DNA of 64,000 nucleotides from the IMG/VR virus record IMGVR_UViG_3300033121_000168, positions 1-64,000 of that record. One strand, given 5' to 3'. Under the pieces are notes generated by a model, which saw only the letters and a list, made by a program, of their open reading frames with translations, searched no databases and had not been told where the DNA came from. This document shows, piece after piece, positions 1,638-19,505 of the stretch. Source of the DNA: a virus. Lineage: Duplodnaviria; Heunggongvirae; Uroviricota; Caudoviricetes. The translations under genes and the position numbers were made by a program. The first letter of the stretch is position 1. Every line of letters starts with the position of its first letter.

Positions 1638-2540
1638 ATGTTTAAAAAGTGTATTAAGTTTTGTTCTATTGCTTTGATTGCAGTTTCTGCAATGTCTATT
1701 ACTGGTTGTGGTGAACGTGTTGAAGTCCCACCAGCTAACATTGGTAAAATCATGACAAATGATGGTTATCAAAAGAATACAATTCCTACATCTAAATTCC
1801 GTTTGGATTACTGCTGGAGTGTTTGTGACAAGCTGGTAACTCTGGATCAGTCAGATAAAACAGTTGTTGAAAAGGTTGTAGTTTTTATGCCAACAGATAA
1901 GCTACAATTGACTGTTCCAGTTCAAACTACTCTTGCAGTTAATCCTACTAAGGTTGATTCTTTGTTCAATACTTTGCCACCTGAAGACGATAGTGATAAT
2001 AATAAGCAAACTGCACAGATTAAGTGGGCTACTATTTATTACACGTATGCACAAAGTATCATTGCTGCTGAGACAACAAGTTTTATCAGTAAATATTCAA
2101 TTGCTGAACTGTCGTCTAATTTGGAACAAATTAATGCTGAATTGCGCAAGCATTTGACTAATACCATTGCACAACGAACACCTTTTAATGCTCGATATGT
2201 TGGAATTTCTCAGATTCAATATCCTGAGATTATTACTAAGGCTCAAGAAGGGGCAGCACAAAGGCGAGAACAGATTCAAACAGAAGAAGCTCAACTTGAG
2301 ATTAGTAAAGTAAAGCTTGAACGTGAATTGCAAGAAGCACGTTTGACTCGTCAGATTGAAATTGAAAAGTCTCAAACTACTGCAGCAGCGAACCGCGTCC
2401 AAGCTGAAACTATTACTTCTGCTGTGCTAGAAAAGCAACGTCTTGACAATCAAGCAGCATGGATTGAAAAGTGGAATGGTATTCTCCCTGGCAATGTAAC
2501 TGCTGATGTTTTTGCTGGCTTTAATAAGGCTCCTAAGTAA
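1638..2540 (+). CDS. putative lipoprotein with coiled-coil, SPFH/band-7-like C-terminal region
   Basis: Signal peptide plus lipobox (AMSITGC), long Q/E/R-rich coiled coil, C-terminal WIEKWNGILP resembling the WDGKLP end of HflK/C-type SPFH proteins. Confidence 0.5.
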   Translation: MFKKCIKFCSIALIAVSAMSITGCGERVEVPPANIGKIMTNDGYQKNTIPTSKFRLDYCWSVCDKLVTLDQSDKTVVEKVVVFMPTDKLQLTVPVQTTLAVNPTKVDSLFNTLPPEDDSDNNKQTAQIKWATIYYTYAQSIIAAETTSFISKYSIAELSSNLEQINAELRKHLTNTIAQRTPFNARYVGISQIQYPEIITKAQEGAAQRREQIQTEEAQLEISKVKLERELQEARLTRQIEIEKSQTTAAANRVQAETITSAVLEKQRLDNQAAWIEKWNGILPGNVTADVFAGFNKAPK

Positions 2541-2884
2541 TGAATTACTTGATTGATTTTGTAATTGCATATCCAGCTTGGAATCTTGCACTTCTTTCTC
2601 TTTCACTTTATTCATATATTACATGCAAAAGTAAAGAAACAGAGAATTTTAGTAAATATGCAATGTTGGTAACTCTAATTGTAGGTATTTTAGTTACTTT
2701 CAACTCTGCATTGATTAAGCCTAAAACGCACGTAGAGCCTTTTAAGCCTTCAGAGGTAGTAACCCATCAGATGGATGAAGAAGTCGCTTCTAAGCCCTTT
2801 ACAGACCGTTTGAGCAAGCCTAAGGAATCAAAGCTGAATGAATCCTTGACCTTCAAACAAGAAGTGCAAAAATACAACAAATAA
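2540..2884 (+). CDS. membrane protein (2 TM)
   Basis: ATG overlaps upstream TAA (TAATGA); two hydrophobic helices. Confidence 0.5.
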   Translation: MNYLIDFVIAYPAWNLALLSLSLYSYITCKSKETENFSKYAMLVTLIVGILVTFNSALIKPKTHVEPFKPSEVVTHQMDEEVASKPFTDRLSKPKESKLNESLTFKQEVQKYNK

Positions 2885-2892
2885 CCAACTGA

Positions 2893-2933
2893 GGTCAAGG
2901 GTCTTTAAATAGTCTCTTGACCTTTTTCTTTTT
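2893..2933 (+). terminator. rho-independent terminator
   Basis: GGTCAAG...CTTGACC hairpin followed by TTTTTCTTTTT. Confidence 0.7.
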
Positions 2934-2973
2934 CTAAAGCATACTTCTTGCATCGAGTTAATAGGAGATACGA

Positions 2974-3285
2974 ATGGAAAAGAAACTTGAATTTTGGATC
3001 TACTCTCTTTACCGAAAAGAGTTTCAAGAAAACTGGAATAAGATTGATGATAATGGTAATCCTGAAATTGAAGCAGTAGATGTTCTTGTATACGAAAGAG
3101 TCATCAATGATCCATCGGATAACCTGTGTATTGGCGGTATTGGTATTGATGGTAAATATTATCAGTTTGATTCATATGAAGCGTATCATGCTGCAAACTG
3201 GTTTGCTGAACGTGAAAGTGTTCATGGACTTAGAGTTGAATCTGTAAAAGTTTCAGTAGACCGAAATAACCTAATAATTCTGTAA
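2974..3285 (+). CDS. hypothetical protein
   Basis: 103-aa ORF, GGAGATA RBS. Confidence 0.5.
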   Translation: MEKKLEFWIYSLYRKEFQENWNKIDDNGNPEIEAVDVLVYERVINDPSDNLCIGGIGIDGKYYQFDSYEAYHAANWFAERESVHGLRVESVKVSVDRNNLIIL

Positions 3286-3725: not shown

Positions 3726-3941
3726 ATGAATATCCTAACTAGAAACGAAGTATTTGAATCATATTCTGAAGCTGAAAAATATGCTTCTGGGATGATGACA
3801 TTTGAGCAAATTGTTGAAGTCTATAGAGATTTATCTATTGCAGAAAAACAACAGTTTGCAGTCTATAAAGTACAAATCCTTGGTGGATATGATACAATGC
3901 TATTTACACGCTACGAAGTTGTTAAATCTGAAAGGAACTAA
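3726..3941 (+). CDS. hypothetical protein
   Basis: 71-aa ORF immediately after the previous stop. Confidence 0.45.
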   Translation: MNILTRNEVFESYSEAEKYASGMMTFEQIVEVYRDLSIAEKQQFAVYKVQILGGYDTMLFTRYEVVKSERN

Positions 3942-4081
3942 TACAATTACTGCAATTGACAATACACCAAAATCCGAACAATCCTGTCAAAAATCGTGTA
4001 GAATCCTAGAAATTATATAAGAAATTTCTACAGATTTATAGAATTAGATTAACAAGATATCAAATACTTAAAGGAATTAAG

Positions 4082-4681
4082 ATGCAAGAATATGTTCGTA
4101 AAGATCGTAATGGTAATGAGTTGAAGGTTGGGGATAAGGTTAACCAAATTGAAGATGAGGTAATTGTTGGTTCAGGTAAAGTAAAACCACCGCAATATAC
4201 TTACCCATGGGCACATGAAGGAGATATTGTCTGGATTGAATGGGAAACTGCTACTCATGAATTTGAAGATAACATTGGTCAAATTGTGCAATGGCGGCTC
4301 GATGACACTGAACACGTAGAGAAGATTGATACCAAACAAGAATTTAACAAGCCCACACCTCATCCTCATGCAGAACTGATTAAACTGTGGGCTGATGATT
4401 TCACTATCAAGTTTCAGTACAAGTTTAAAGATTCTGTTGTTTGGAATGATCTAAATGCAGACCCAGTTTGGAATAAAACTTTAGAATATCGAGTCAAACC
4501 AAAAGAAAAGAAGTTTGTTGATAAGTATTATTATACTTGTGAAAATCAACATGGAGTGGTTTTTGTAACTGATGACAAATATTCAGATAATGAATGGGAG
4601 TCTTTTATTAAAGAACAAAACATCACTCAATATGTCCGACTAGATTTCAGTCTTACCAAGGTAGAAGTTAAAGAAGATTAA
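4082..4681 (+). CDS. hypothetical protein
   Basis: 199-aa ORF, AAGGAAT RBS, preceded by a 140-bp intergenic region with inverted repeats. Confidence 0.55.
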   Translation: MQEYVRKDRNGNELKVGDKVNQIEDEVIVGSGKVKPPQYTYPWAHEGDIVWIEWETATHEFEDNIGQIVQWRLDDTEHVEKIDTKQEFNKPTPHPHAELIKLWADDFTIKFQYKFKDSVVWNDLNADPVWNKTLEYRVKPKEKKFVDKYYYTCENQHGVVFVTDDKYSDNEWESFIKEQNITQYVRLDFSLTKVEVKED

Positions 4682-6049: not shown

Positions 6050-6345
6050 CAATTGAACAATTGACTTCTGTCAAATCTCAAATGACCCTCAAAGGGGCTG
6101 CAATCACTGCTAAAATTGTAGCTGATGCGGTACGGCTCAAAATGCGGGCTGACATTGAGAACCCGGCGGGAACCTGCTCACTGTCCGGTTTTCTGCCCCT
6201 CGCCATAAATCTACATTTTAATGAACTAGCAGACAGCCTAGACAATAATTGTCCGCACTACCCCGACGACGTGGACACAATCGACACATTGCGCGATCAG
6301 GTGGCACAGAATATGCGTGAACTGGGTTTTGATTTTGAGGCATAA
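6043..6345 (+). CDS. hypothetical protein
   Basis: 100 aa, overlapping start. Confidence 0.45.
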   Translation: MLTIEQLTSVKSQMTLKGAAITAKIVADAVRLKMRADIENPAGTCSLSGFLPLAINLHFNELADSLDNNCPHYPDDVDTIDTLRDQVAQNMRELGFDFEA

Positions 6346-6346
6346 T

Positions 6347-6538
6347 ATGAAAAACGAACATGATGCAAACTTGGGCCTCACCCCTCAAACTGTCCCAAGC
6401 TGGATGCACCCCTCGAAACACGTTTACAAGCCCCTCAAGGCTCAAACAAAGGGCCGGGAATACTTGGGGGCTATCGTGATCGGTTTGATTATTGCAGCCC
6501 CTTTTATCGTTCAAACAATTACCGATTACACGAAGTAA
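6347..6538 (+). CDS. small membrane protein
   Basis: ATG at 6347 (internal to the listed 6317-6538 ORF), C-terminal TM segment GAIVIGLIIAAPFIV. Confidence 0.4.
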   Translation: MKNEHDANLGLTPQTVPSWMHPSKHVYKPLKAQTKGREYLGAIVIGLIIAAPFIVQTITDYTK

Positions 6539-6546
6539 GGATACAA

Positions 6547-6753
6547 ATGCCCAAAATCAATATGATGCAAAACGAAGCCGATTTTATGGCATCGGTTAAT
6601 CAAGCCTTGCAAAAGGTTCACAACAAGGCTTTGCAGCATCGCCGCAGTTTCGAGGAATTGTCACGCCCAGATTATTGGAAGGAACAACAAGCCAGAAAGA
6701 ATAACCCGCGTGTTAAATCATATGATGCGCTTGCAGATTATGTCCTCGTCTAA
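6547..6753 (+). CDS. hypothetical protein
   Basis: 68 aa, AAGGAT RBS. Confidence 0.4.
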   Translation: MPKINMMQNEADFMASVNQALQKVHNKALQHRRSFEELSRPDYWKEQQARKNNPRVKSYDALADYVLV

Positions 6754-6770
6754 TTGACCATATCGGAAAG

Positions 6771-7130
6771 GTGACAAAAGAAACCTATTCTGTCCGCATC
6801 AAATACTTGCAAGATAAAATCAAATTCTTTCAAGATCAACTGAACCAACAAAAGGAAACCAAAACAGTGCAAGAAGACAAAAAGACAAAACGTATCCCCA
6901 TTGGTCGAAAGTATCAAAAAACAATCGATACTAGTGGGTGGTCTAACGAACAATTCAATAGTTTACATCGTGGACAATGGGTCAAAAACTTTGGTGCAAC
7001 TGGGCAATTCTTGGGCATTACCGCAAGGGGCACAGTCACGGTCAACTACAAGCAAACCGAGGATAAGCGCAAGCAATATGCCGCGAATCAGCCCTTGCGC
7101 AAGTTCGTCATTTTACACGGGGGGAAGTAA
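6771..7130 (+). CDS. hypothetical basic protein (GTG start)
   Basis: 119 aa, Lys/Gln-rich. Confidence 0.4.
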   Translation: MTKETYSVRIKYLQDKIKFFQDQLNQQKETKTVQEDKKTKRIPIGRKYQKTIDTSGWSNEQFNSLHRGQWVKNFGATGQFLGITARGTVTVNYKQTEDKRKQYAANQPLRKFVILHGGK

Positions 7131-7135
7131 ATAAA

Positions 7136-7306
7136 TGAACCAACAGATCTACAGGGTTATCATGTTCTCAGTAACATGCCCTAGCGAAAAGTCTAATATG
7201 GGCGTTTATAAGACATACCATGATGCAGAAATGGCGATTCTAAAATTTAAACAGGATTACTCAGATAGCATGCTGTTTGAGATTGAAGAAGATTATTTCG
7301 GATAAT
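7136..7306 (+). CDS. hypothetical small protein (56 aa)
   Basis: ATG after TAAATAA, MNQQIYRVIMFSV...; below the ORF-track cutoff. Confidence 0.3.
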
Positions 7307-13242: not shown

Positions 13243-13317
13243 GGGTAATTCGTATAGAGGTTATTACGGTGGATTGTCGATCCATTTACAGGAGTTCAAT
13301 TCTCCTATTGCCCGCCA
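13243..13317 (+). tRNA. tRNA-Asp(GTC)
   Basis: Acceptor GGGTAAT/ATTGCCC (one G-U), anticodon loop TTGTCGA, T-arm GGAGTTCAATTCTCC, CCA. Confidence 0.6.
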
Positions 13318-13322
13318 AACTT

Positions 13323-13398
13323 GCCTGAATAGCTCAGATGGTAGAGCGATTCCCTGAAGAGGAATGCGTCGGAGGTTCGAATCCTTCTTCTGGCACCA
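13323..13398 (+). tRNA. tRNA-Phe(GAA)
   Basis: D-arm AGCTCAGATGGTAGAGCG, anticodon arm ATTCC-CTGAAGA-GGAAT, T-arm GGAGGTTCGAATCCTTC; one acceptor mismatch. Confidence 0.75.
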
Positions 13399-13483
13399 AA
13401 GAAAATGCATGTTGTTTGGCTACAACAAACACTAATCAAGAATGATGACGATACTTGACATTGAAGTGGAAAGCTTCTATAAT

Positions 13484-13555
13484 AGAGACTTAGCACAGAG
13501 GTAGTGCGGCTCCTTTACACGGAGTAGGTCATAGGTTCGATCCCTATAGTCTCTA
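13484..13555 (+). tRNA. tRNA-Val(TAC)
   Basis: Acceptor AGAGACT/AGTCTCT, anticodon loop TTTACAC, T-arm ATAGGTTCGATCCCTAT; CCA not encoded. Confidence 0.7.
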
Positions 13556-13559
13556 CAAT

Positions 13560-13635
13560 GTCGATATAGTTTAGTTGGTTAGAACAGGAGACTTTCAATC
13601 TCCAAAGTCGGGTTCGATCCCCGATATCGACTCCA
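13560..13635 (+). tRNA. tRNA-Glu(TTC)
   Basis: Acceptor GTCGATA/TATCGAC, anticodon arm GGAGA-CTTTCAA-TCTCC, T-arm TCGGGTTCGATCCCCGA, CCA. Confidence 0.8.
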
Positions 13636-13647
13636 GAATTTTTAGGT

Positions 13648-13720
13648 GTGACTATAACTCAACTGGTTAGAGTTTCAGGTTGTGACCCTGAATGTGAGAG
13701 TTCAAGTCTCTCTAGTCACC
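13648..13720 (+). tRNA. tRNA-His(GTG)
   Basis: Acceptor GTGACTA/TAGTCAC, anticodon arm TCAGG-TTGTGAC-CCTGA, T-arm GAGAGTTCAAGTCTCTC. Confidence 0.75.
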
Positions 13721-13733
13721 CCTAAGAGTTTAA

Positions 13734-13809
13734 TGCGGGATAACTCAGTTGGTAGAGTGCGAGGCTCATAACCTTGATGTCGTCGGTTCGAATCCGGCTC
13801 CCGCAACCA
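13734..13809 (+). tRNA. tRNA-Met(CAT), elongator-type (or Ile2 via lysidine)
   Basis: Acceptor TGCGGGA/TCCCGCA fully paired, anticodon loop CTCATAA, T-arm GTCGGTTCGAATCCGGC, CCA. Confidence 0.75.
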
Positions 13810-13816
13810 GAATTGA

Positions 13817-13892
13817 TGCCGGTTAGCTCAGTTGTTAGAGCACTCGCTTGATAAGCGATAGGTCGTTGGTTAGAGTCCAACACTGGCAACCA
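13817..13892 (+). tRNA. tRNA-Ile(GAT)
   Basis: Acceptor TGCCGGT/ACTGGCA, D-arm GCTCAGTTGTTAGAGC, anticodon loop TTGATAA, CCA. Confidence 0.7.
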
Positions 13893-13922
13893 TTTGATGG
13901 GTCTTTATTTAAAAGATCTTGT

Positions 13923-14000
13923 TGGCGAGTAGAATAGTTTGGCCTAATTCAAGCGGCTTTGACCCGCTGATCGTTGGTTCGAATCCAACCTCGTCTGCCA
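13923..14000 (+). tRNA. tRNA-Gln(TTG), acceptor first pair U1-U72 mismatch
   Basis: Anticodon arm AGCGG-CTTTGAC-CCGCT, T-arm GTTGGTTCGAATCCAAC, acceptor TGGCGAG/CTCGTCT (6/7 pairs), CCA. Confidence 0.55.
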
Positions 14001-14007
14001 AATTTGT

Positions 14008-14093
14008 TCCGTTGTAGGAGAATTGGTAAATCCAGCACACTGTTAATGTGCCACTTAATTGTACTGTAGGTTCGAAGCCTACCAACGGAGCCA
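14008..14093 (+). tRNA. tRNA with anticodon GTT (Asn) but type-II length (86 nt, 14-nt variable region)
   Basis: Acceptor TCCGTTG/CAACGGA perfect, anticodon arm GCACA-CTGTTAA-TGTGC, extra CACTTAATTGTACT before T-arm GTAGGTTCGAAGCCTAC, CCA. Confidence 0.55.
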
Positions 14094-14095
14094 AA

Positions 14096-14317
14096 ATTTC
14101 AATACAGCTAGACCGGCCAGTCGAAAAGAATCAATTTTCAAATACAATTCCTCTTGAAGTTGAACATATTGATGGTAATAGTCAAAATAATGTAGAATCA
14201 AATTTAACCTTACTTTGTCCAAATTGTCACTCATTGACTAAAACTTATAAATCTTTGAATAAAGGTAATGGGGGATATAGTAGAATGAAAAGGTATAGAG
14301 AAGGTAAAAGTTATTAA
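14096..14317 (+). pseudogene. HNH homing-endonuclease remnant (C-terminal HNH motif only, no canonical start)
   Basis: In-frame translation ...EVEHIDGNSQNNVESNLTLLCPNCHSLTKTYKS... carries the HNH core; the frame opens inside the upstream tRNA with no ATG/GTG/TTG, only a possible ATT at 14096 after a GGAG. Confidence 0.5.
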
Positions 14318-14401
14318 GCTGGGTTAGCATAGTGGGAGTGCAACGGTTTTGTAATCCGTCGAAGAAATTCAAAGGGTGTTCGATTCACCCACTCAGCACC
14401 A
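14318..14401 (+). tRNA. tRNA with anticodon TGT (Thr) but 84 nt long (14-nt variable hairpin, U31-U39 mismatch)
   Basis: Acceptor GCTGGGT/ACTCAGC, anticodon arm ACGGT-TTTGTAA-TCCGT, variable CGAAGAAATTCAAA (GAA/TTC hairpin), T-arm GGGTGTTCGATTCACCC, CCA. Confidence 0.5.
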
Positions 14402-14410
14402 ATTTATAAT

Positions 14411-14487
14411 GCGTGTATGGTGTTTAACGGCTAACATCTCTGGCTTCCACCCAGAAGTTCTCGGTTCGAATCCGAGTACCCGCACCA
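14411..14487 (+). tRNA. tRNA-Gly(TCC)
   Basis: Anticodon arm TCTGG-CTTCCAC-CCAGA, T-arm CTCGGTTCGAATCCGAG, acceptor GCGTGTA/TACCCGC (one mismatch), CCA. Confidence 0.7.
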
Positions 14488-14491
14488 GAAT

Positions 14492-14588
14492 TACAGTATG
14501 GCCGAGTGACTAGGCAGCGAATTGCTCCTACATAAGTAGGAAAAGTCAAACTCGCTTCAGGCTGGTTAAAATCCAGTTACTGTATCCA
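14492..14588 (+). tRNA. tRNA-like gene (Ser-type TGGCCGAG D-arm) with a 31-nt insertion in the anticodon arm; possibly interrupted or pseudo
   Basis: Acceptor TACAGTA/TACTGTA perfect, D-arm GCCGAGTGACTAGGC, T-arm GCTGGTTAAAATCCAGT, CCA. The only 5-bp anticodon-stem pairing (AGCGA/TCGCT) encloses 31 nt (ATTGCTCCTACATAAGTAGGAAAAGTCAAAC) with an internal hairpin, not a 7-nt loop. Confidence 0.4.
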
Positions 14589-14593
14589 AATTA

Positions 14594-14679
14594 GGAGTAA
14601 TGGCGAAATGGTAGCCGCAAGAGTTTGCTAAACTCTCGTTAGAAATGGCGTGTAGGTTCAAGTCCTACTTACTCCGCCA
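14594..14679 (+). tRNA. tRNA-Ser(GCT), type II
   Basis: Acceptor GGAGTAA/TTACTCC perfect, anticodon arm AGAGT-TTGCTAA-ACTCT, long variable arm, T-arm GTAGGTTCAAGTCCTAC, CCA. Confidence 0.75.
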
Positions 14680-14688
14680 ATATGAATT

Positions 14689-14777
14689 AGAGTGTAGCTA
14701 CAAAGGGTACAAACAGGACTTGAAATCCTGGCTACTGTAGAGATACGGTAAGGGTTCGATTCCTTTACACTCTGCCA
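14689..14777 (+). tRNA. tRNA-Ser(TGA), type II
   Basis: Acceptor AGAGTGT/ACACTCT perfect, anticodon arm CAGGA-CTTGAAA-TCCTG, long variable arm, T-arm AAGGGTTCGATTCCTTT, CCA. Confidence 0.75.
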
Positions 14778-14784
14778 TAAATTA

Positions 14785-14870
14785 GGATGAGTAGACTCGT
14801 AAGGAGCGAGGACAGCCTGTAAAGCTGTTGTCTATCGGCCAGCTTGGATCGTTACCAAGGTCATCCACCA
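14785..14870 (+). tRNA. tRNA-Tyr(GTA), type II
   Basis: Anticodon arm ACAGC-CTGTAAA-GCTGT, long variable arm, T-arm CTTGGATCGTTACCAAG, acceptor GGATGAG/GTCATCC, CCA. Confidence 0.65.
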
Positions 14871-14876
14871 ATAAAT

Positions 14877-14953
14877 GGGGTCGCATGTACCAAGGGCGGC
14901 GAAGGAGGTTTGCACCTTTCTTGTGGTGAGTTCGATTCTCACTGGCTCCACCA
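14877..14953 (+). tRNA. tRNA-Ala(TGC) with G3-U70 identity pair
   Basis: Acceptor GGGGTCG/TGGCTCC including the G3-U70 wobble, anticodon loop TTTGCAC, T-arm GTGAGTTCGATTCTCAC, CCA. Confidence 0.7.
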
Positions 14954-14955
14954 AT

Positions 14956-15031
14956 CTTCATATAGCGCAGTTGGTAGCGCGTTTGCTTTGGGAGCATAAG
15001 GTCGAAGGTTCGAATCCTTCTATGAAGACCA
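14956..15031 (+). tRNA. tRNA-Pro(TGG)
   Basis: Acceptor CTTCATA/TATGAAG perfect, D-arm GCGCAGTTGGTAGCGC, anticodon loop TTTGGGA (G37), T-arm GAAGGTTCGAATCCTTC, CCA. Confidence 0.75.
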
Positions 15032-15038
15032 AATTAAA

Positions 15039-15122
15039 GCCTCGGTGGTGGAATGGTATACACACTGCGCTAAGAACGCAGCGCCGAAGGGATTGAGGGT
15101 TCGACTCCCTCCTGAGGCACCA
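15039..15122 (+). tRNA. tRNA-Leu, type II, anticodon read as AAG (unusual A34)
   Basis: Acceptor GCCTCGG/CTGAGGC, anticodon arm CTGCG-CTAAGAA-CGCAG, variable arm GCCGAAGGGATTG, T-arm GAGGGTTCGACTCCCTC, CCA; paralog of the tRNA at 176. Confidence 0.65.
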
Positions 15123-15544: not shown

Positions 15545-15559
15545 ACATAAGGAGGTTGA

Positions 15560-17108
15560 ATGAGTTCTAATACTGTATTTGCACCAGCGTCAAAAGCACA
15601 AGAGCAATTCTTGAATAGTGATGCAGATATTACTTTCTATGGTGGTAAAGTTGTGCCTCCATTCAAAACCTATTTAATTCGGTGAAACCCTAACGTAAAA
15701 TCGAGGGCAATACCGAGCCAAGCAGGGGGTATTTTTAATATCCCCGGGCGTGTGTAGAGACTATGGGAAACCAGTAAGGTTCAAGCGAATCTGAAACAGT
15801 AGGATGCTTTATAGCATAAGATATAGTCCGACACCCAAGGAAACTTGGGAGTACTCTAGCGAAGTACATAACTTTCTGGCAGCGGGCAGTGGAAAGAGCC
15901 ATTGCTTACTTATGTCGTTCCTAAAGTTTTGTCATCATCCACGTACTCGTGGTGTGATATTTAGGCGAACAACAAAGCAGATCACAAACCCTGGTGGTTT
16001 ATTTGACTCTGCAGTTAATTTATACAAATTAGTAGATCCTAAACTAAGAGTAAGAATGAGAGAGTTAGAACTTGTTTTTAGTTCTGGAGCTGTTCTCAAA
16101 TTTGCTTACCTTGACAATGCTTCTGATAAATATAACTTCCAAGGTGCGGAACTTACTTTCATTGGTTTTGATGAGATTCAACAATTAAGTGAAGACAATG
16201 TAACTTATTTGTTTTCTCGTTTGCGTTCAACCTCAGTTGATTATAAGAAGCAGATTGTAGCTACAGGTAATCCTGACTACGATAGTTTCATTCGACATTG
16301 GGTTGAATTTGCACTTGATGAGCGTGGCATTCCAATTAGAAAAGATGTTTACCCTACTCGATATATGTGTCAAGCGATGGGTGGCTCTATTGAGTGGGCA
16401 GATACTAGAGAAGAACTAGAGAAGAAATATGGTACTGGGGATGACTCTGGTATTCTATCCTTTACATTCATTCCAGGGACTATTTATGATAATCCACCTT
16501 TGATGAAGGCTGATCCGACTTACGTTAGTAAGTTAAAGAAACTTCCTCGCGTTGAGATGGAACGTCTTCTATTGGGGTCTTGGTATGCAAGACAAGAGGC
16601 TGCAGGACTATGGAAGAGAGAGTGGATTACTCTTGTAGATCATCCTAATCCTAAAGCAACAAAAAGGATTAGAGCCTGGGATTTTGCGTTTAGTCTACCC
16701 TCCGAACAATATCCAAATCCTGACTGGACTCGTGGTGTCCTTATGTCAAAGGATAAGAACAGTGTTTACACAGTTGAAAATGTCGTTTCTATGCGAGACA
16801 GAGTACACGAAGTTGAGAAGTTAGTATTTGAGACTGCAATTCGGGATGGACAAGAGGTTATTATTTCTATACCTATTGACCCTGCAGCAGCAGCAGGAGC
16901 ATATGCTAGAGACTTCCAACGGAGGCTTTCTGAATATGGTTTCAATGTGAAACTATCGAAGCCTGTAAAGTCCAAGGTAACTAGATTTGCTCCATTTTCG
17001 AGTGTAACTCAGGCTGGATTTGTTAATGTAGTAAAGGGTGATTGGAATACTCCTTTCTTTGATGAATTGGAGATATTCGATGGAGATCCTAAGAAAAAAG
17101 ACGATTAA
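15560..17108 (+). CDS. terminase large subunit, split gene: exon 1 15560-15646 (29 aa) + exon 2 15879-17108, joined by group I intron splicing
   Basis: Exon 1 (GGAGG RBS) encodes MSSNTVFAPASKAQEQFLNSDADITFYGG; exon 2 continues AAGSGKSHCLL... (Walker A), FDEIQ Walker B and a C-terminal nuclease domain. The Walker A motif YGG|AAGSGKS is regenerated only when 15647-15878 is removed; exon 2 is in frame 0 with the long ORF 15804-17108. Confidence 0.8.
15647..15878 (+). ncRNA. group I self-splicing intron (232 nt, no ORF) in the terminase large subunit gene
   Basis: 5' exon ends in U (..ATGGTGGT); internal guide sequence GCCTCCAT at 15655-15662 pairs 7/8 with the exon end; P7 strands AGAGACTATGG / AAGATATAGTCC (canonical S element); P9 hairpin CCCAAG-GAAA-CTTGGG; terminal G at 15878 precedes GCAGCGGGC of exon 2. 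Confidence 0.7.
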
Positions 17109-17314
17109 ATTGGGTCGTCTATAAACTCATTGAATTCGGTGGACACCTACTTGGAATCAAGTAGACAATACCGAGCGAAGCTGGTGTAATACCAGAACGT
17201 GTAACGACTAGCCGAAAGGCGTAGGGGCAAGTGCTCCGAAGCGGTGAGAAACCTAATAACTTAGGTTTAAGATATAGTCTCATCTGCATGGTGACATGCA
17301 GCATTTTAATATAG
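17106..17314 (+). ncRNA. second group I intron-like element inserted exactly after the last sense codon of the terminase large subunit (3' boundary uncertain)
   Basis: Exon end AGACGAT (17099-17105, last nt U) pairs perfectly with GTCGTCT at 17114-17120 (P1 with terminal U-G). Shares AATTCGGTG, CAATACCGAGCGAAGC, ACGACTAG (P7 5') and AAGATATAGTCT (P7 3') with the intron at 15647. P9-like hairpin CTGCATG-GTGA-CATGCAG. The terminase TAA stop is the first 3 nt of the element. Confidence 0.5.
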
Positions 17315-17324
17315 GAGAATTTCT

Positions 17325-17852
17325 ATGATTTATAATTCAAACTCTACAGGCCCTTTTAAAATTCTGCAAAGGAATGGTGATGCTTGTTTAATTCAGTTTA
17401 TAGACACCGGCACCACCAAAACTGCTTGTATTTCTAATATATTAGCTGGTAAAGTAAAAGACCAATATTTCCCTACTGTGTATGGTAAGGGGTATTATGG
17501 GGATTACGACAAGACCACGACTTATTACAAGCAGGCTAAACAGCTTTGGCAAAATATGCTAAAAAGATGTTATTGCGAAAAAGACTTAAAAGGTTACTAT
17601 GGTAAAGCAACAGTATCACAAAGATGGCTGAACTTTAGCAATTTCCTAGAGGATTTACCTAGCCTTGTAAACTTTAAGCAGTGGCTTGCTGGACAACAAA
17701 AAACAGGCGGGAAATATAATCTGGATAAAGATTTAAAGGTAAAAGGTAATACCTGTTACTGTAAAGAAGCCTGTATGTTCGTAACTGAGTTTGAAAATAA
17801 ATCAGAGGGCGCTAAAAATGGCAAACCTTATACTAAAATGGGCAAGAGTTAA
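17325..17852 (+). CDS. hypothetical protein next to the second intron-like element; possible intron-associated endonuclease/DNA-binding protein
   Basis: 175 aa with its own GGAG RBS; W-x2-M-x2-RC-Y motif (LWQNMLKRCY) and Tyr/Lys-rich regions reminiscent of DNA-binding modules in homing endonucleases; the position mirrors intron-encoded ORFs. Confidence 0.4.
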   Translation: MIYNSNSTGPFKILQRNGDACLIQFIDTGTTKTACISNILAGKVKDQYFPTVYGKGYYGDYDKTTTYYKQAKQLWQNMLKRCYCEKDLKGYYGKATVSQRWLNFSNFLEDLPSLVNFKQWLAGQQKTGGKYNLDKDLKVKGNTCYCKEACMFVTEFENKSEGAKNGKPYTKMGKS

Positions 17853-18056
17853 CGCCTCTTGTTTAAGGTAATGCAAGCTGATTGTTGTTCAGACGCTTTC
17901 TTGCTTTTGAACAGAGAGTTGATCATACCTGAGATGACTATAACAGAGTTGTCTTCATCAAACCCCTTCAATTTTAACACAAGTCTAGGTCACACAGGAT
18001 TATCTGCTCCACCTTTACCTACAAATTTACCTTCTTTTAATTTTTAAAGGATAATT

Positions 18057-19505
18057 ATGGAAACAAAAGTAGAAAAAGGATTAGATGATCCTAATCGTTT
18101 TAAGCTTTCTGAGATGGGATACATTGGATTAAATATCTTTGATGGTATTACTTCGGATGAACTAAAGAAGGAATTGAATTTCCCTTATAATCTAAAGACA
18201 TATAAACAAATGTCAGTTCATTCTACAATTAATTCAGCTTTAACTTTATATGACAACATTATCAGTAAAGCTAATTGGGTTGTAAGACCTCCAGAATCAC
18301 CTACTCAGGAAGAAAAAGATCAGACTAAATTCATTGAAGAATGTATGCAAGATATGGAACATTCTTGGTCTGAATTTATTCAAGAAGCTTTAAGTATGAC
18401 CACTTTTGGTTTTTCTGTGCATGAAAAAGTCTACCGTAGACGATTTTCTTCTAATGGTAGTAAATATAATGATGGTAAAATTGGTTGGAAAAAGATTCCA
18501 ATTCGTTGCCAGGAAAGTATTACTAGATTTATTTATTCAGAAGATGGAAATGACTTAGTTGGTGTTAAACAGAATGTTTCTGCTTTACAAGATCCAATGA
18601 ATCGCTACAAGAATAAGACTGAAGTTGCTTTTCCAATTTCTAAAGTTCTTCTCTTTAGAACTGGTCGTCATAGAGGTGATCCATTTGGTAAGAGTCCCTT
18701 GCGTGATGCTTATCTAGCATGGAGATACTTGATGGCTTTGGAAGAAATTGAAGCTACTGGAGTTACTAAGGATTTGCAAGGATTTCCGGTTCTGTACCTG
18801 CCACCTCAGTACTTAGCATCAGATGCCACACCAGAACAGAAGACTATTCGTACATACTATGAGCAGTCTATGGCTAATCTTCAAATGAATCAGCAGTCTG
18901 CTATGATTCTTCCACAAGCATTCGATCCTGATACAAAGCAGCCTTTGTTCAAGATGGAGCTTTTAAGCGTCTCTGGTCAAAAGGGCTTTGACACAGTAAA
19001 AATTAAAGAATACTATAAAAATTTAATCCTTACTTCATTATTCGCGGATATTCTAATCATGGGTCAAAGTACTACAGGTAGTTTTGCACTTGGTCAGATT
19101 AAAAATAGTCTTACAGGTACTGCTGCTGAATCTTTTATTTCCACTATTAGGGATGTAATCAATAAAGATCTGATCCGCCAGACTTACGAATTGAATGGTT
19201 GGGATGCTTCAAGAGCTTGTGTAATTGATTATGAAAACATTGATAGTGTAGATGCTGAAACATTCTCTAAGGCAATTCAACGTATTGCTTCAGTAGGATT
19301 CTTGACGAAAGACCTTGACACTATTAATAAGATTAGAAATGTATTAGGTACAGATGAACTTCCTGAGGGGACAGATTTTGAATCTTTACTTAGTGATATC
19401 ACATCCAGGTCTGGTGATGGGATGAGTAAAGGGTCAGGAAATGGAACAAGCGATGTAGTTGCTTCAACTGATACCTCTTCCAATAATGCAAATAATGCGA
19501 GTTAA
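18057..19505 (+). CDS. portal protein
   Basis: 482 aa, AAGGAT RBS, downstream of terminase; size and composition typical of siphovirus portals, acidic C-terminus. Confidence 0.65.
   Translation: METKVEKGLDDPNRFKLSEMGYIGLNIFDGITSDELKKELNFPYNLKTYKQMSVHSTINSALTLYDNIISKANWVVRPPESPTQEEKDQTKFIEECMQDMEHSWSEFIQEALSMTTFGFSVHEKVYRRRFSSNGSKYNDGKIGWKKIPIRCQESITRFIYSEDGNDLVGVKQNVSALQDPMNRYKNKTEVAFPISKVLLFRTGRHRGDPFGKSPLRDAYLAWRYLMALEEIEATGVTKDLQGFPVLYLPPQYLASDATPEQKTIRTYYEQSMANLQMNQQSAMILPQAFDPDTKQPLFKMELLSVSGQKGFDTVKIKEYYKNLILTSLFADILIMGQSTTGSFALGQIKNSLTGTAAESFISTIRDVINKDLIRQTYELNGWDASRACVIDYENIDSVDAETFSKAIQRIASVGFLTKDLDTINKIRNVLGTDELPEGTDFESLLSDITSRSGDGMSKGSGNGTSDVVASTDTSSNNANNAS

Follow-up and report, generated by a model that had tools for sequence, protein, structure and literature searches.

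The gene for the terminase large subunit (terL) of a tailed phage of approximately 77-80 kb very probably consists of three exons interrupted by two related IA-type group I introns. The gene was analyzed in a window of 64,000 nucleotides (nt), corresponding to positions 1 to 64,000 of the IMG/VR virus record IMGVR_UViG_3300033121_000168, and all features described here lie on its plus strand. Intron 1 (15647-15878) splits the Walker A motif of TerL, and its identity as a group I intron was confirmed far beyond chance by the Rfam score and by covariation. Intron 2 (17106-17873) immediately follows the conserved KDD in the RNase H-like nuclease domain (...KKKDD), where a preliminary description of the same DNA had placed the end of the gene.

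The group I intron in the Walker A motif

Intron 1 comprises 232 nt, contains no open reading frame (ORF), lacks P2, and carries P7.1 and P7.2. The Rfam model RF00028 (Intron_gpI) matched it with 62.1 bits over 15637-15850, which is above the gathering score of 50, and with an E value of 2.3e-13 across the whole 64-kb window. P3-P9 and the conserved AAGAUAUAGUC were present in the alignment, and the P2 positions of the model were deleted. The 232-nt ORF-less group I intron proposed in the preliminary description was thus upheld by the Rfam search and the covariation given below, and its boundaries proved exact.

The insertion falls between two codons, those of G29 and A30, residues 1 and 2 of Walker A (YGG-AAGSGKS; G-AAGS-GKS). 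Exon 1 (15560-15646; MSSNTVFAPASKAQEQFLNSDADITFYGG) comprises 29 codons from ATG 15560 to ...ITFYGG, ending at U15646, and exon 2 opens with GCA GCG GGC AGT GGA AAG AGC (AAGSGKS), as had been read from the sequence earlier. Relatives were located by tblastn of the intron-less TerL P0002 against 80 IMG/VR loci and JGI contigs (L numbers denote loci and P numbers protein clusters), and residues 5-30 of P0002 matched exon 1 at 92% identity. The homologs run unbroken across site 1 (ITFYGGAAGAGKS and ITFYGGAAGAGKSHCLL); a homolog family lacking the YGG-AAGSGKS continuity had been named beforehand as a sign against a split gene, and the homologs found were continuous. ATG 15560 has a strong Shine-Dalgarno sequence, AAGGAGG (15549-15555), 4 nt ahead of it, which supports a genuine start of translation at exon 1; none was found ahead of ATG 15804 inside P8. 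Stop codons occur within the intron in the exon-1 frame, and its sense strand contains no ORF of at least 25 amino acids (aa) except the read-through from exon 1. The two exons had been described as sharing one frame; this had to be corrected, as 15560 mod 3 is 2, 15879 mod 3 is 0, and 232 equals 3 × 77 + 1, so that they are in frame only once spliced.

All the structural landmarks of the preliminary description were found, namely, an upstream exon ending in U, a complementary internal guide sequence (IGS), the P7 strands, a P9 hairpin, and a terminal G. P1 is formed by the exon strand AUGGUGGU (15639-15646) and the IGS GCCUCCAU (15655-15662), with seven of eight pairs, one U-U mismatch, and a U15646.G15655 wobble at the 5' splice site. 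GUUGU at 15650-15654 is a weak P10 candidate with GCAGC of exon 2, and only UCAAAA (6 nt) separates P1 from P3. P3 (15669-15674/15798-15803; compensatory changes in five of six pairs) takes part in the P3/P7 pseudoknot and is followed by P4 (15678-15684/15711-15717), P5 (15688-15695/15702-15707), and the P6/P6a hairpin (15722-15749; compensatory changes in 7/10 pairs), the length of which varies among relatives. P4-P5 is the most conserved stretch of the intron and matches introns of Twort, Salmonella, Staphylococcus, and other phages. P7 (15757-15763/15824-15829; compensatory changes in 3/6 pairs) pairs G-[A bulge]-GACUA with UAGUCC; AGAGACUA is located at 15756-15763 and the conserved AAGAUAUAGUCC at 15818-15829. 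Among relatives, GACUA/UAGUC changes to GGUCA/UGACC with pairing kept at 100%, and P7 is presumably the guanosine-binding helix, as in group I introns in general. P7.1 (15764-15773) has a GAAA loop and compensatory changes in 3/3 pairs, P7.2 (15777-15792) in 4/6, and the P8 hairpin (15804-15817), which holds ATG 15804, in 5/5. P9 (15834-15849), again with a GAAA loop, and P9.1 (15851-15867) also show compensatory changes. G15878, the omega G at the 3' splice site, ends the intron and is invariant in 7/7 relatives, and joining the exons there gives the protein of the intron-less homologs.

The P7.1/P7.2 pair is a hallmark of subgroup IA, and in intron 1 these two helices show compensatory changes in 7/9 pairs and are 100% paired. 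As P2 is missing, the intron is called IA-like and not IA2. The subgroup IA2 introns of phage T4 (td, nrdB, and nrdD (sunY)) also lie in conserved catalytic regions of essential enzymes, carry P7.1/P7.2, share the conserved AAGAUAUAGUC J8/7-P7 element, exist in ORF-containing and ORF-less forms, and vary in presence among relatives; they differ from those of the window in having P2, in being larger, and in residing in genes of nucleotide metabolism rather than terL.

For the covariation analysis, seven distinct site-1 copies were aligned with a few flanking exon bases on each side, the structure, with the P3/P7 pseudoknot and P10 included, was drawn up on the window sequence, and the standard pairs were counted per cell. 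Pairs were formed in 92.0% of the cells, compared with 38-41% when the 3' partners were slid by 1-3 columns; 33 of the 72 pairs showed both-sided changes, and none of 500 shuffles reached any of the five measures. P3, P4, P5, P7, P7.1, P7.2, and P9.1 were all 100% paired, and every helix except the invariant P4 showed compensatory changes. The covariation extended into the coding sequence: the synonymous third base of the exon-1 Tyr codon (TAU/TAC) changed together with the IGS (CCAU/CCGU) in 7/7 sequences. The Gly codon preceding site 1 was GGT in 7/7 intron-bearing alleles and GGA, GGT, GGG, or GGC in the intron-less alleles nearest to them, a fixation to be expected if the U.G wobble constrains the last exon base.

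The second intron and the three-exon gene

The gene had been described as ending at 17108 and encoding 438 aa, but the TAA at 17106-17108 is the first triplet of intron 2, which comprises 768 nt, opens with this in-frame TAA, and ends with its omega G at G17873. RF00028 matched with 74.1 bits at 17050-17301, a range that overlaps the supposed terL stop codon and reaches the end of the core at 17301; its start at 17050 is wrong, as it falls inside the exon. P1 of intron 2 pairs GACGAU (17100-17105) with GUCGUC (17114-17119) and includes a U17105.G17114 wobble. The Rfam score, P1 with its U.G pair, the core, and the omega G all mark intron 2 as a group I intron; like intron 1, it has P7.1/P7.2 and no P2. 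In an alignment of four distinct cores, 94.3% of the cells were paired, compared with 34-43% in the slid controls, 18/50 pairs showed both-sided changes, and 0/500 shuffles matched these values. The last Asp codon before site 2 was GAC (45) or GAT (22) in intron-less alleles and GAT in all intron-bearing ones, which were 4/4 metagenomic loci and Pseudomonas phage vB_PsyM_KIL1 (Flaumdravirus, NC_030934; L091).

Exon 2 (15879-17105) comprises 409 codons (AAGSGKS...FDGDPKKKDD), ends at U17105, and was supported by tblastn with P0002 and by the Pfam domains Terminase_6N and Terminase_6C. Uninterrupted homologs are 487-490 aa long and extend past KDD (...KKKDDQVDCCSDA... and ...FDGDPKKKDDQVDCCSDAMLLLNK...). 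Splicing at G17873 would join KDD to QADCCSDA and restore the homolog spacing KDD-xx-DxxSDA. Exon 3 (17874-18047) then contributes 57 codons and a stop, from QADCCSDAFLLLNRELII to LPSFNF, as indicated by its translation, by homologs reading ...KKKDDQVDCCSDAMLLLNK..., and by tblastn of residues 440-484. The three exons form a coding sequence of 1488 nt for a 495-aa TerL, with predicted ligated junctions of TATGGTGGT/GCAGCGGGC (intron 1) and AAAGACGAT/CAAGCTGAT (intron 2); the intron-less site-2 allele, for example in L001 and Limnohabitans phage DC31, reads AAAGACGAT/CAAGTTGA....

Compared with the 438-aa model, the three-exon model raised the coverage of Terminase_6C from 132/155 to 153/155 and its score from 48.8 to 57.8 bits. 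In the three-exon TerL, Terminase_6N covers positions 2-214 of 215 and Terminase_6C positions 2-153 of 155, and Walker A (G29-AAGS-G34-K35-S36) straddles the exon 1/2 junction. The complete ATPase and RNase H-like nuclease domains of a T4-like TerL (Terminase_6N and Terminase_6C) were found only in the three-exon product. The spliced TerL gave no match to the sequences of solved structures.

Public gene calls (cluster P0001) contain a 434-aa "terminase" from the ORF 15804-17108, which has a false start in P8, and the first 25 residues of this call (MLYSIRYSPTPKETWEYSSEVHNFL) are the translated P8-P9.1 of intron 1. The artefact IRYSPTPEETW is shared by P0048 and P0056 from other lineages. Among the best 120 protein clusters, seven open with a translated intron or a spurious start before AAGAGKS (P0047, P0048, and P0056-60), and four terminate at KKDD (P0023, P0034, P0039, and P0114).

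Intron 2 contains an ORF of 175 aa (17325-17852) between P9 and P9.1, with its own ribosome-binding site (AGGAG, 17314-17318). Its stop codon lies in the loop of a P9.1-like hairpin (CAAGAG/CUCUUG, 17843-17861), and equivalent hairpins with compensatory changes were found in the site-2 introns of L083, L084, L086, and KIL1, in which the junction AAAGACGAU/UAA is also the same. Site 2 is occupied by an ORF-less intron of 242 nt in L084, by an intron of 779 nt with a 178-aa ORF in L083, and by an intron of 973 nt with a 253-aa ORF in L086/87, with Rfam scores of 62.9-70.9 bits. The window ORF matched PHROG 2081 "HNH endonuclease" (E = 8.6e-45); searches of Pfam and NCBIfam gave no match, and the PDB sequences gave only spurious TPR-like matches. 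Its family falls into size classes of 175-179 and approximately 240-250 aa, with 862 matching isolate records. The invariant family motif, NLDKD...Y..C.F..ENK, resembles a beta-beta-alpha-metal motif, but has Lys at the position expected for the general-base His. The ORF is therefore best described as a putative HNH-like protein that is likely to be a homing endonuclease.

Distribution among relatives and known systems

Uninterrupted terL, with continuous YGGAAG and KDDQVD, was found in 55 of the 80 loci. Exactly between YGG and AAG, the lineage of the window (L016-18 and L081-82) and six further lineages (L014, L015, L019-21, L022, L075, and L011/12) carry an insert of 219-233 nt. Rfam also matched homologous introns of relatives at these sites; the site-1 copies in L075 and L019 scored below the gathering score. 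The identical two-intron locus recurred in at least five other contigs from different samples, namely those of the window lineage, and both introns are patchy, as only some of the relatives have them. A separate observation in L075 was an extra group I intron (approximately 2743-2979, 59.6 bits) near TerL residue 125-129, besides the site-1 intron.

In pairwise comparisons, the site-1 introns are 71-94% identical, in step with the flanking exon DNA at 72-82%, and in a few pairs the introns are more alike than the exons (e.g., L014/L015, 94% vs 82%). As the divergence of the intron follows that of the exons, this suggests that the two have long been inherited together in vertical descent while splicing was selected for, with occasional transfer being possible. 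Intron 1 encodes no endonuclease and is thus unable to home on its own; its scattered occurrence suggests that it was mobile in the past, perhaps via endonucleases acting in trans.

Other elements occupy the P-loop DNA of relatives. L047 (3103-3333) and L050 carry a related ORF-less group I intron 6 bp downstream of site 1 (GGAA-GSGKT, 73.1 bits). An in-frame insert with the Pfam domains LAGLIDADG_3 and Hom_end lies between GK and S in L009 (approximately 2038-3030) and L010; in L009, it reads GK-ALRHGEKVL...IVTHN-S, which corresponds to an intein running from Ala1 to HN before the S. In L011 (site-1 intron at 1793-2019) and L012, the site-1 intron is followed six codons on, after AAGSGK, by a LAGLIDADG-type intein. 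L078 (approximately 1810-3000) has an in-frame P-loop insert after AG that is intein-like at its start (CFDKDTEYLTPEGW...), and Pfam gave no support for an intein there.

KIL1 is an isolate with an arrangement close to that of the window. Its TerL belongs to the same family (43-50% aa identity), the order of tRNA cluster, terL, and portal gene is alike, and its terL is split by group I introns at 1355-1606 and 2283-3049 of L091, both confirmed by Rfam (94.7 and 68.9 bits). The site-2 intron of KIL1 shares the junction with the window and includes a 178-aa ORF that is 58% identical and a P9.1 hairpin with the stop codon, and its third terL exon, QVDATSDAF... (3050-3160), is the counterpart of exon 3 in the window. 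The two phages differ in that the first terL intron of KIL1 is located at residue 231/232 and not in Walker A, and in that its portal gene has a group I intron, also confirmed by Rfam (3924-4239). The RefSeq record contains joins for the first terL intron and the portal gene but misses the site-2 intron with its HNH ORF and exon 3, and the paper on the KIL1 phage does not mention introns (PMC4791379). The portal gene of the window is intact (18057-19505); in L087, the portal gene (Portal_Mu) is seemingly split by an insert (approximately 6218-7136) encoding a 224-aa HNH_3 protein.

In Rheinheimera phage vB_RspM_Barba19A (MK719730; L089, approximately 2986-3211), Walker A of a Terminase_6 TerL is likewise interrupted by a group I intron that has no ORF and the same type of core; it separates FFGGGA from GGGKTWS, has P1 GGAGCU/GGUUCC, and ends with a terminal G. 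It differs from intron 1 in its insertion two codons downstream, which is the position seen in L047/L050, and the TerL is approximately 32% identical; its Rfam score of 48.9 bits is just under the gathering score. GenBank lists two genes there, gp102 "hypothetical" and gp103 "terminase large subunit," and the Barba19A paper never mentions an intron (PMC6715854).

As in the window, terL of Staphylococcus phage Twort, annotated as a three-part join, has three exons and two group I introns, and over 58 nt the P3-P5 core of a Twort intron shares 81% identity with intron 1. Twort differs in its Gram-positive host, its placement as a herellevirus, its unrelated TerL sequence, and the presence of endonucleases (IepA and IepB) in both introns. 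A Walker A position of the first Twort intron was considered and rejected, as the translation of its exon 1 suggests a position upstream of the P-loop.

Among the Bastillevirinae, terL introns occur in 5/52 genomes, some of which have two or three, and splicing of the TerL intron of Bacillus phage SIOphi was demonstrated in vitro and in vivo (PMC11878797). Their intron ORFs also include PHROG 2081 "HNH endonuclease," but their lineage and insertion sites are different, and the PHROG 2081 ORFs reside there in DNA polymerase (pol) introns (PMC11878797). The text of that study does not mention a Walker A or P-loop site (PMC11878797). At the protein level, the inteins TerL1-a/b are known from the TerL P-loop of mycobacteriophages (PMC5050341); they are selfish elements in Walker A, as is intron 1, and such an intein was also found in the relatives L009-L012, but they are spliced in frame as protein, in contrast to the RNA intron of the window. 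A full-text literature search for a report of an intron at the TerL P-loop retrieved nothing relevant. Papers on cyanophage PA-SR01 and on the OM43 phages proved to have no bearing on terL introns. Group I introns in terL are thus already well documented (Twort and Bastillevirinae), and their insertion in Walker A seems to be unreported in the literature searched.

ARAGORN identified 17 tRNA genes in the window, two at its start (from 176-341) and 15 in a cluster within 13243-15122. The cluster lies directly upstream of a terS-like gene (DUF5681) and terL, which is the layout of PAK_P1-like and KIL phages. A permissive Rfam scan of the whole window detected no introns beyond the two, and only tRNAs and sub-threshold tRNA-like matches. 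Among the latter, 14688-14774 was scored as tRNA-Sec and is called tRNA-Ser by ARAGORN, and 14877-14953 matched the tmRNA model with 23 bits. The int-alpA small RNA of Rfam was found upstream of terL in L014 (2147-2215) and L047 (2296-2361) with 37 and 41.6 bits (gathering score of 35.8), and no match to it was reported in the window.

Splicing, alternative explanations, and significance

The standard group I pathway would apply to both introns. The terL pre-mRNA would fold into the group I structures, and the IGS would pair with the end of the upstream exon, so that a U.G wobble forms at the splice site. An exogenous guanosine bound in P7 would attack after U15646 (or U17105), the terminal G (G15878 or G17873) would take its place in the binding site, and the free 3'-OH of the upstream exon would then attack and ligate the exons. 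As a complete P-loop and a complete nuclease domain are encoded by the doubly spliced mRNA alone, packaging is expected to require both splicing events; the earlier statement that packaging depends on ribozyme activity is a reasonable inference. At the level of sequence, the comparisons demonstrate a group I fold that is evidently maintained by selection, boundaries that fit ligation into an intact TerL, and an uninterrupted allele in relatives.

Several observations weigh against the three-exon gene with two group I introns. Folding of 15647-15878, which had been proposed as a check, gave a single-sequence minimum free energy better than that of shuffles, but only modestly (z = -2.07); such folding leaves out the pseudoknot and is uninformative beside the covariation. 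P10 is weak and unconserved (64% paired across relatives), the U-U mismatch in P1 is kept in 7/7 sequences, and some phage terL and pol introns are spliced in vivo and not in vitro (PMC11878797). Neither of two exact-match scans for the ligated junctions in public metagenome contigs, which would reveal a cDNA or an intron-less allele of the window phage, gave a match, and this result is neutral.

The published difference between splicing in vivo and in vitro leads to an alternative that is possible but unlikely, namely, that splicing takes place in vivo but the introns do not act as autonomous ribozymes and need a host or phage protein cofactor or particular ionic conditions. Several terL, pol, and ribonucleotide reductase (RNR) introns of Bastillevirinae behave in this manner during infection (PMC11878797), and the very compact intron 1 (no P2, weak P10, and a mismatched P1) could need a chaperone. 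However, all the core helices are present and upheld by compensatory changes, the loops on P7.1 and P9 are of the GNRA type (GAAA) that typically stabilises autonomous folds, and intron 1 has no maturase-like ORF.

Given the elements found in the P-loop DNA of relatives, Walker A could also be a battleground of selfish splicing elements working at the RNA and protein levels, in which intron 1 persists through target-site immunity or trans mobilisation rather than as a neutral relic; we regard this idea as tentative and improbable on balance. A benefit to the phage is somewhat more doubtful still. The introns would act as a GTP-sensitive timing switch on late packaging, or as a weapon or shield among co-infecting relatives, the intron-2 endonuclease cutting intron-less terL and the inserts destroying the sites of rival endonucleases at the P-loop. 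The P-loop is contested by introns at two positions 6 bp apart, by a LAGLIDADG intein, and by a second in-frame insert; the ORF of intron 2 is conserved, seems to be full-length, and has a ribosome-binding site of its own; and a "molecular switch" has been proposed for terL, pol, and RNR introns (PMC11878797). Nevertheless, nothing in the sequence separates benefit from neutrality, more than half of the relatives' loci (55/80) have no insert, and the intron and intein coexist in L011/L012, so that neither excludes the other.

It is very improbable that intron 1 is a dead relic, with a 41-aa exon-1 peptide and a truncated TerL from ATG 15804, or that terL is a pseudogene of a defective phage. 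The ORF 15804-17108 is indeed open and was called by automatic annotation (P0001), but its 434-aa product lacks the first Walker A glycine and opens with 25 intron-derived residues, and its ATG is buried in the P8 stem with no Shine-Dalgarno sequence. Exon 1 is conserved at 75-92% aa identity and retains its strong Shine-Dalgarno sequence, and the locus was found again in several independent near-complete contigs. Compensatory substitutions keep the structure of intron 1 across phages with exons that are only 72-82% identical, which would not be expected of a relic. An assembly or chimera artefact that placed the 232-nt insert in a genome lacking it is hardly credible: nothing specific favors it beyond the origin of the window in a metagenome-type assembly, and identical junctions occur in different samples (L016, L017, L018, L081, and L082), divergent homologs at site 1 in at least six other lineages, and equivalent introns in the isolates Barba19A and KIL1. 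Translational bypassing of the T4 gene 60 type over the 232-nt gap was rejected in view of the Rfam match and the covariation.

The three-exon terL has direct consequences for annotation. Automatic calling yields a 434-aa "terminase" running from P8 to the first codon of intron 2, with separate small "hypothetical" ORFs, and a similar mis-annotation is present in the public records of the isolates Barba19A and KIL1. As TerL is a standard marker for classification and for prediction of the packaging strategy, such truncated models distort alignments and trees. The current understanding of how these introns work is unchanged, and the P2-less introns of 219-233 nt are compact natural candidates for ribozyme study. 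The findings add to the Gram-positive herelleviruses with group I introns in terL a widespread aquatic clade that is related to PAK_P1, Limnohabitans, and Pseudomonas phages. The insertions fall precisely in the P-loop and the nuclease KDD, both of them catalytic motifs, and the P-loop DNA has been targeted repeatedly by introns and inteins.

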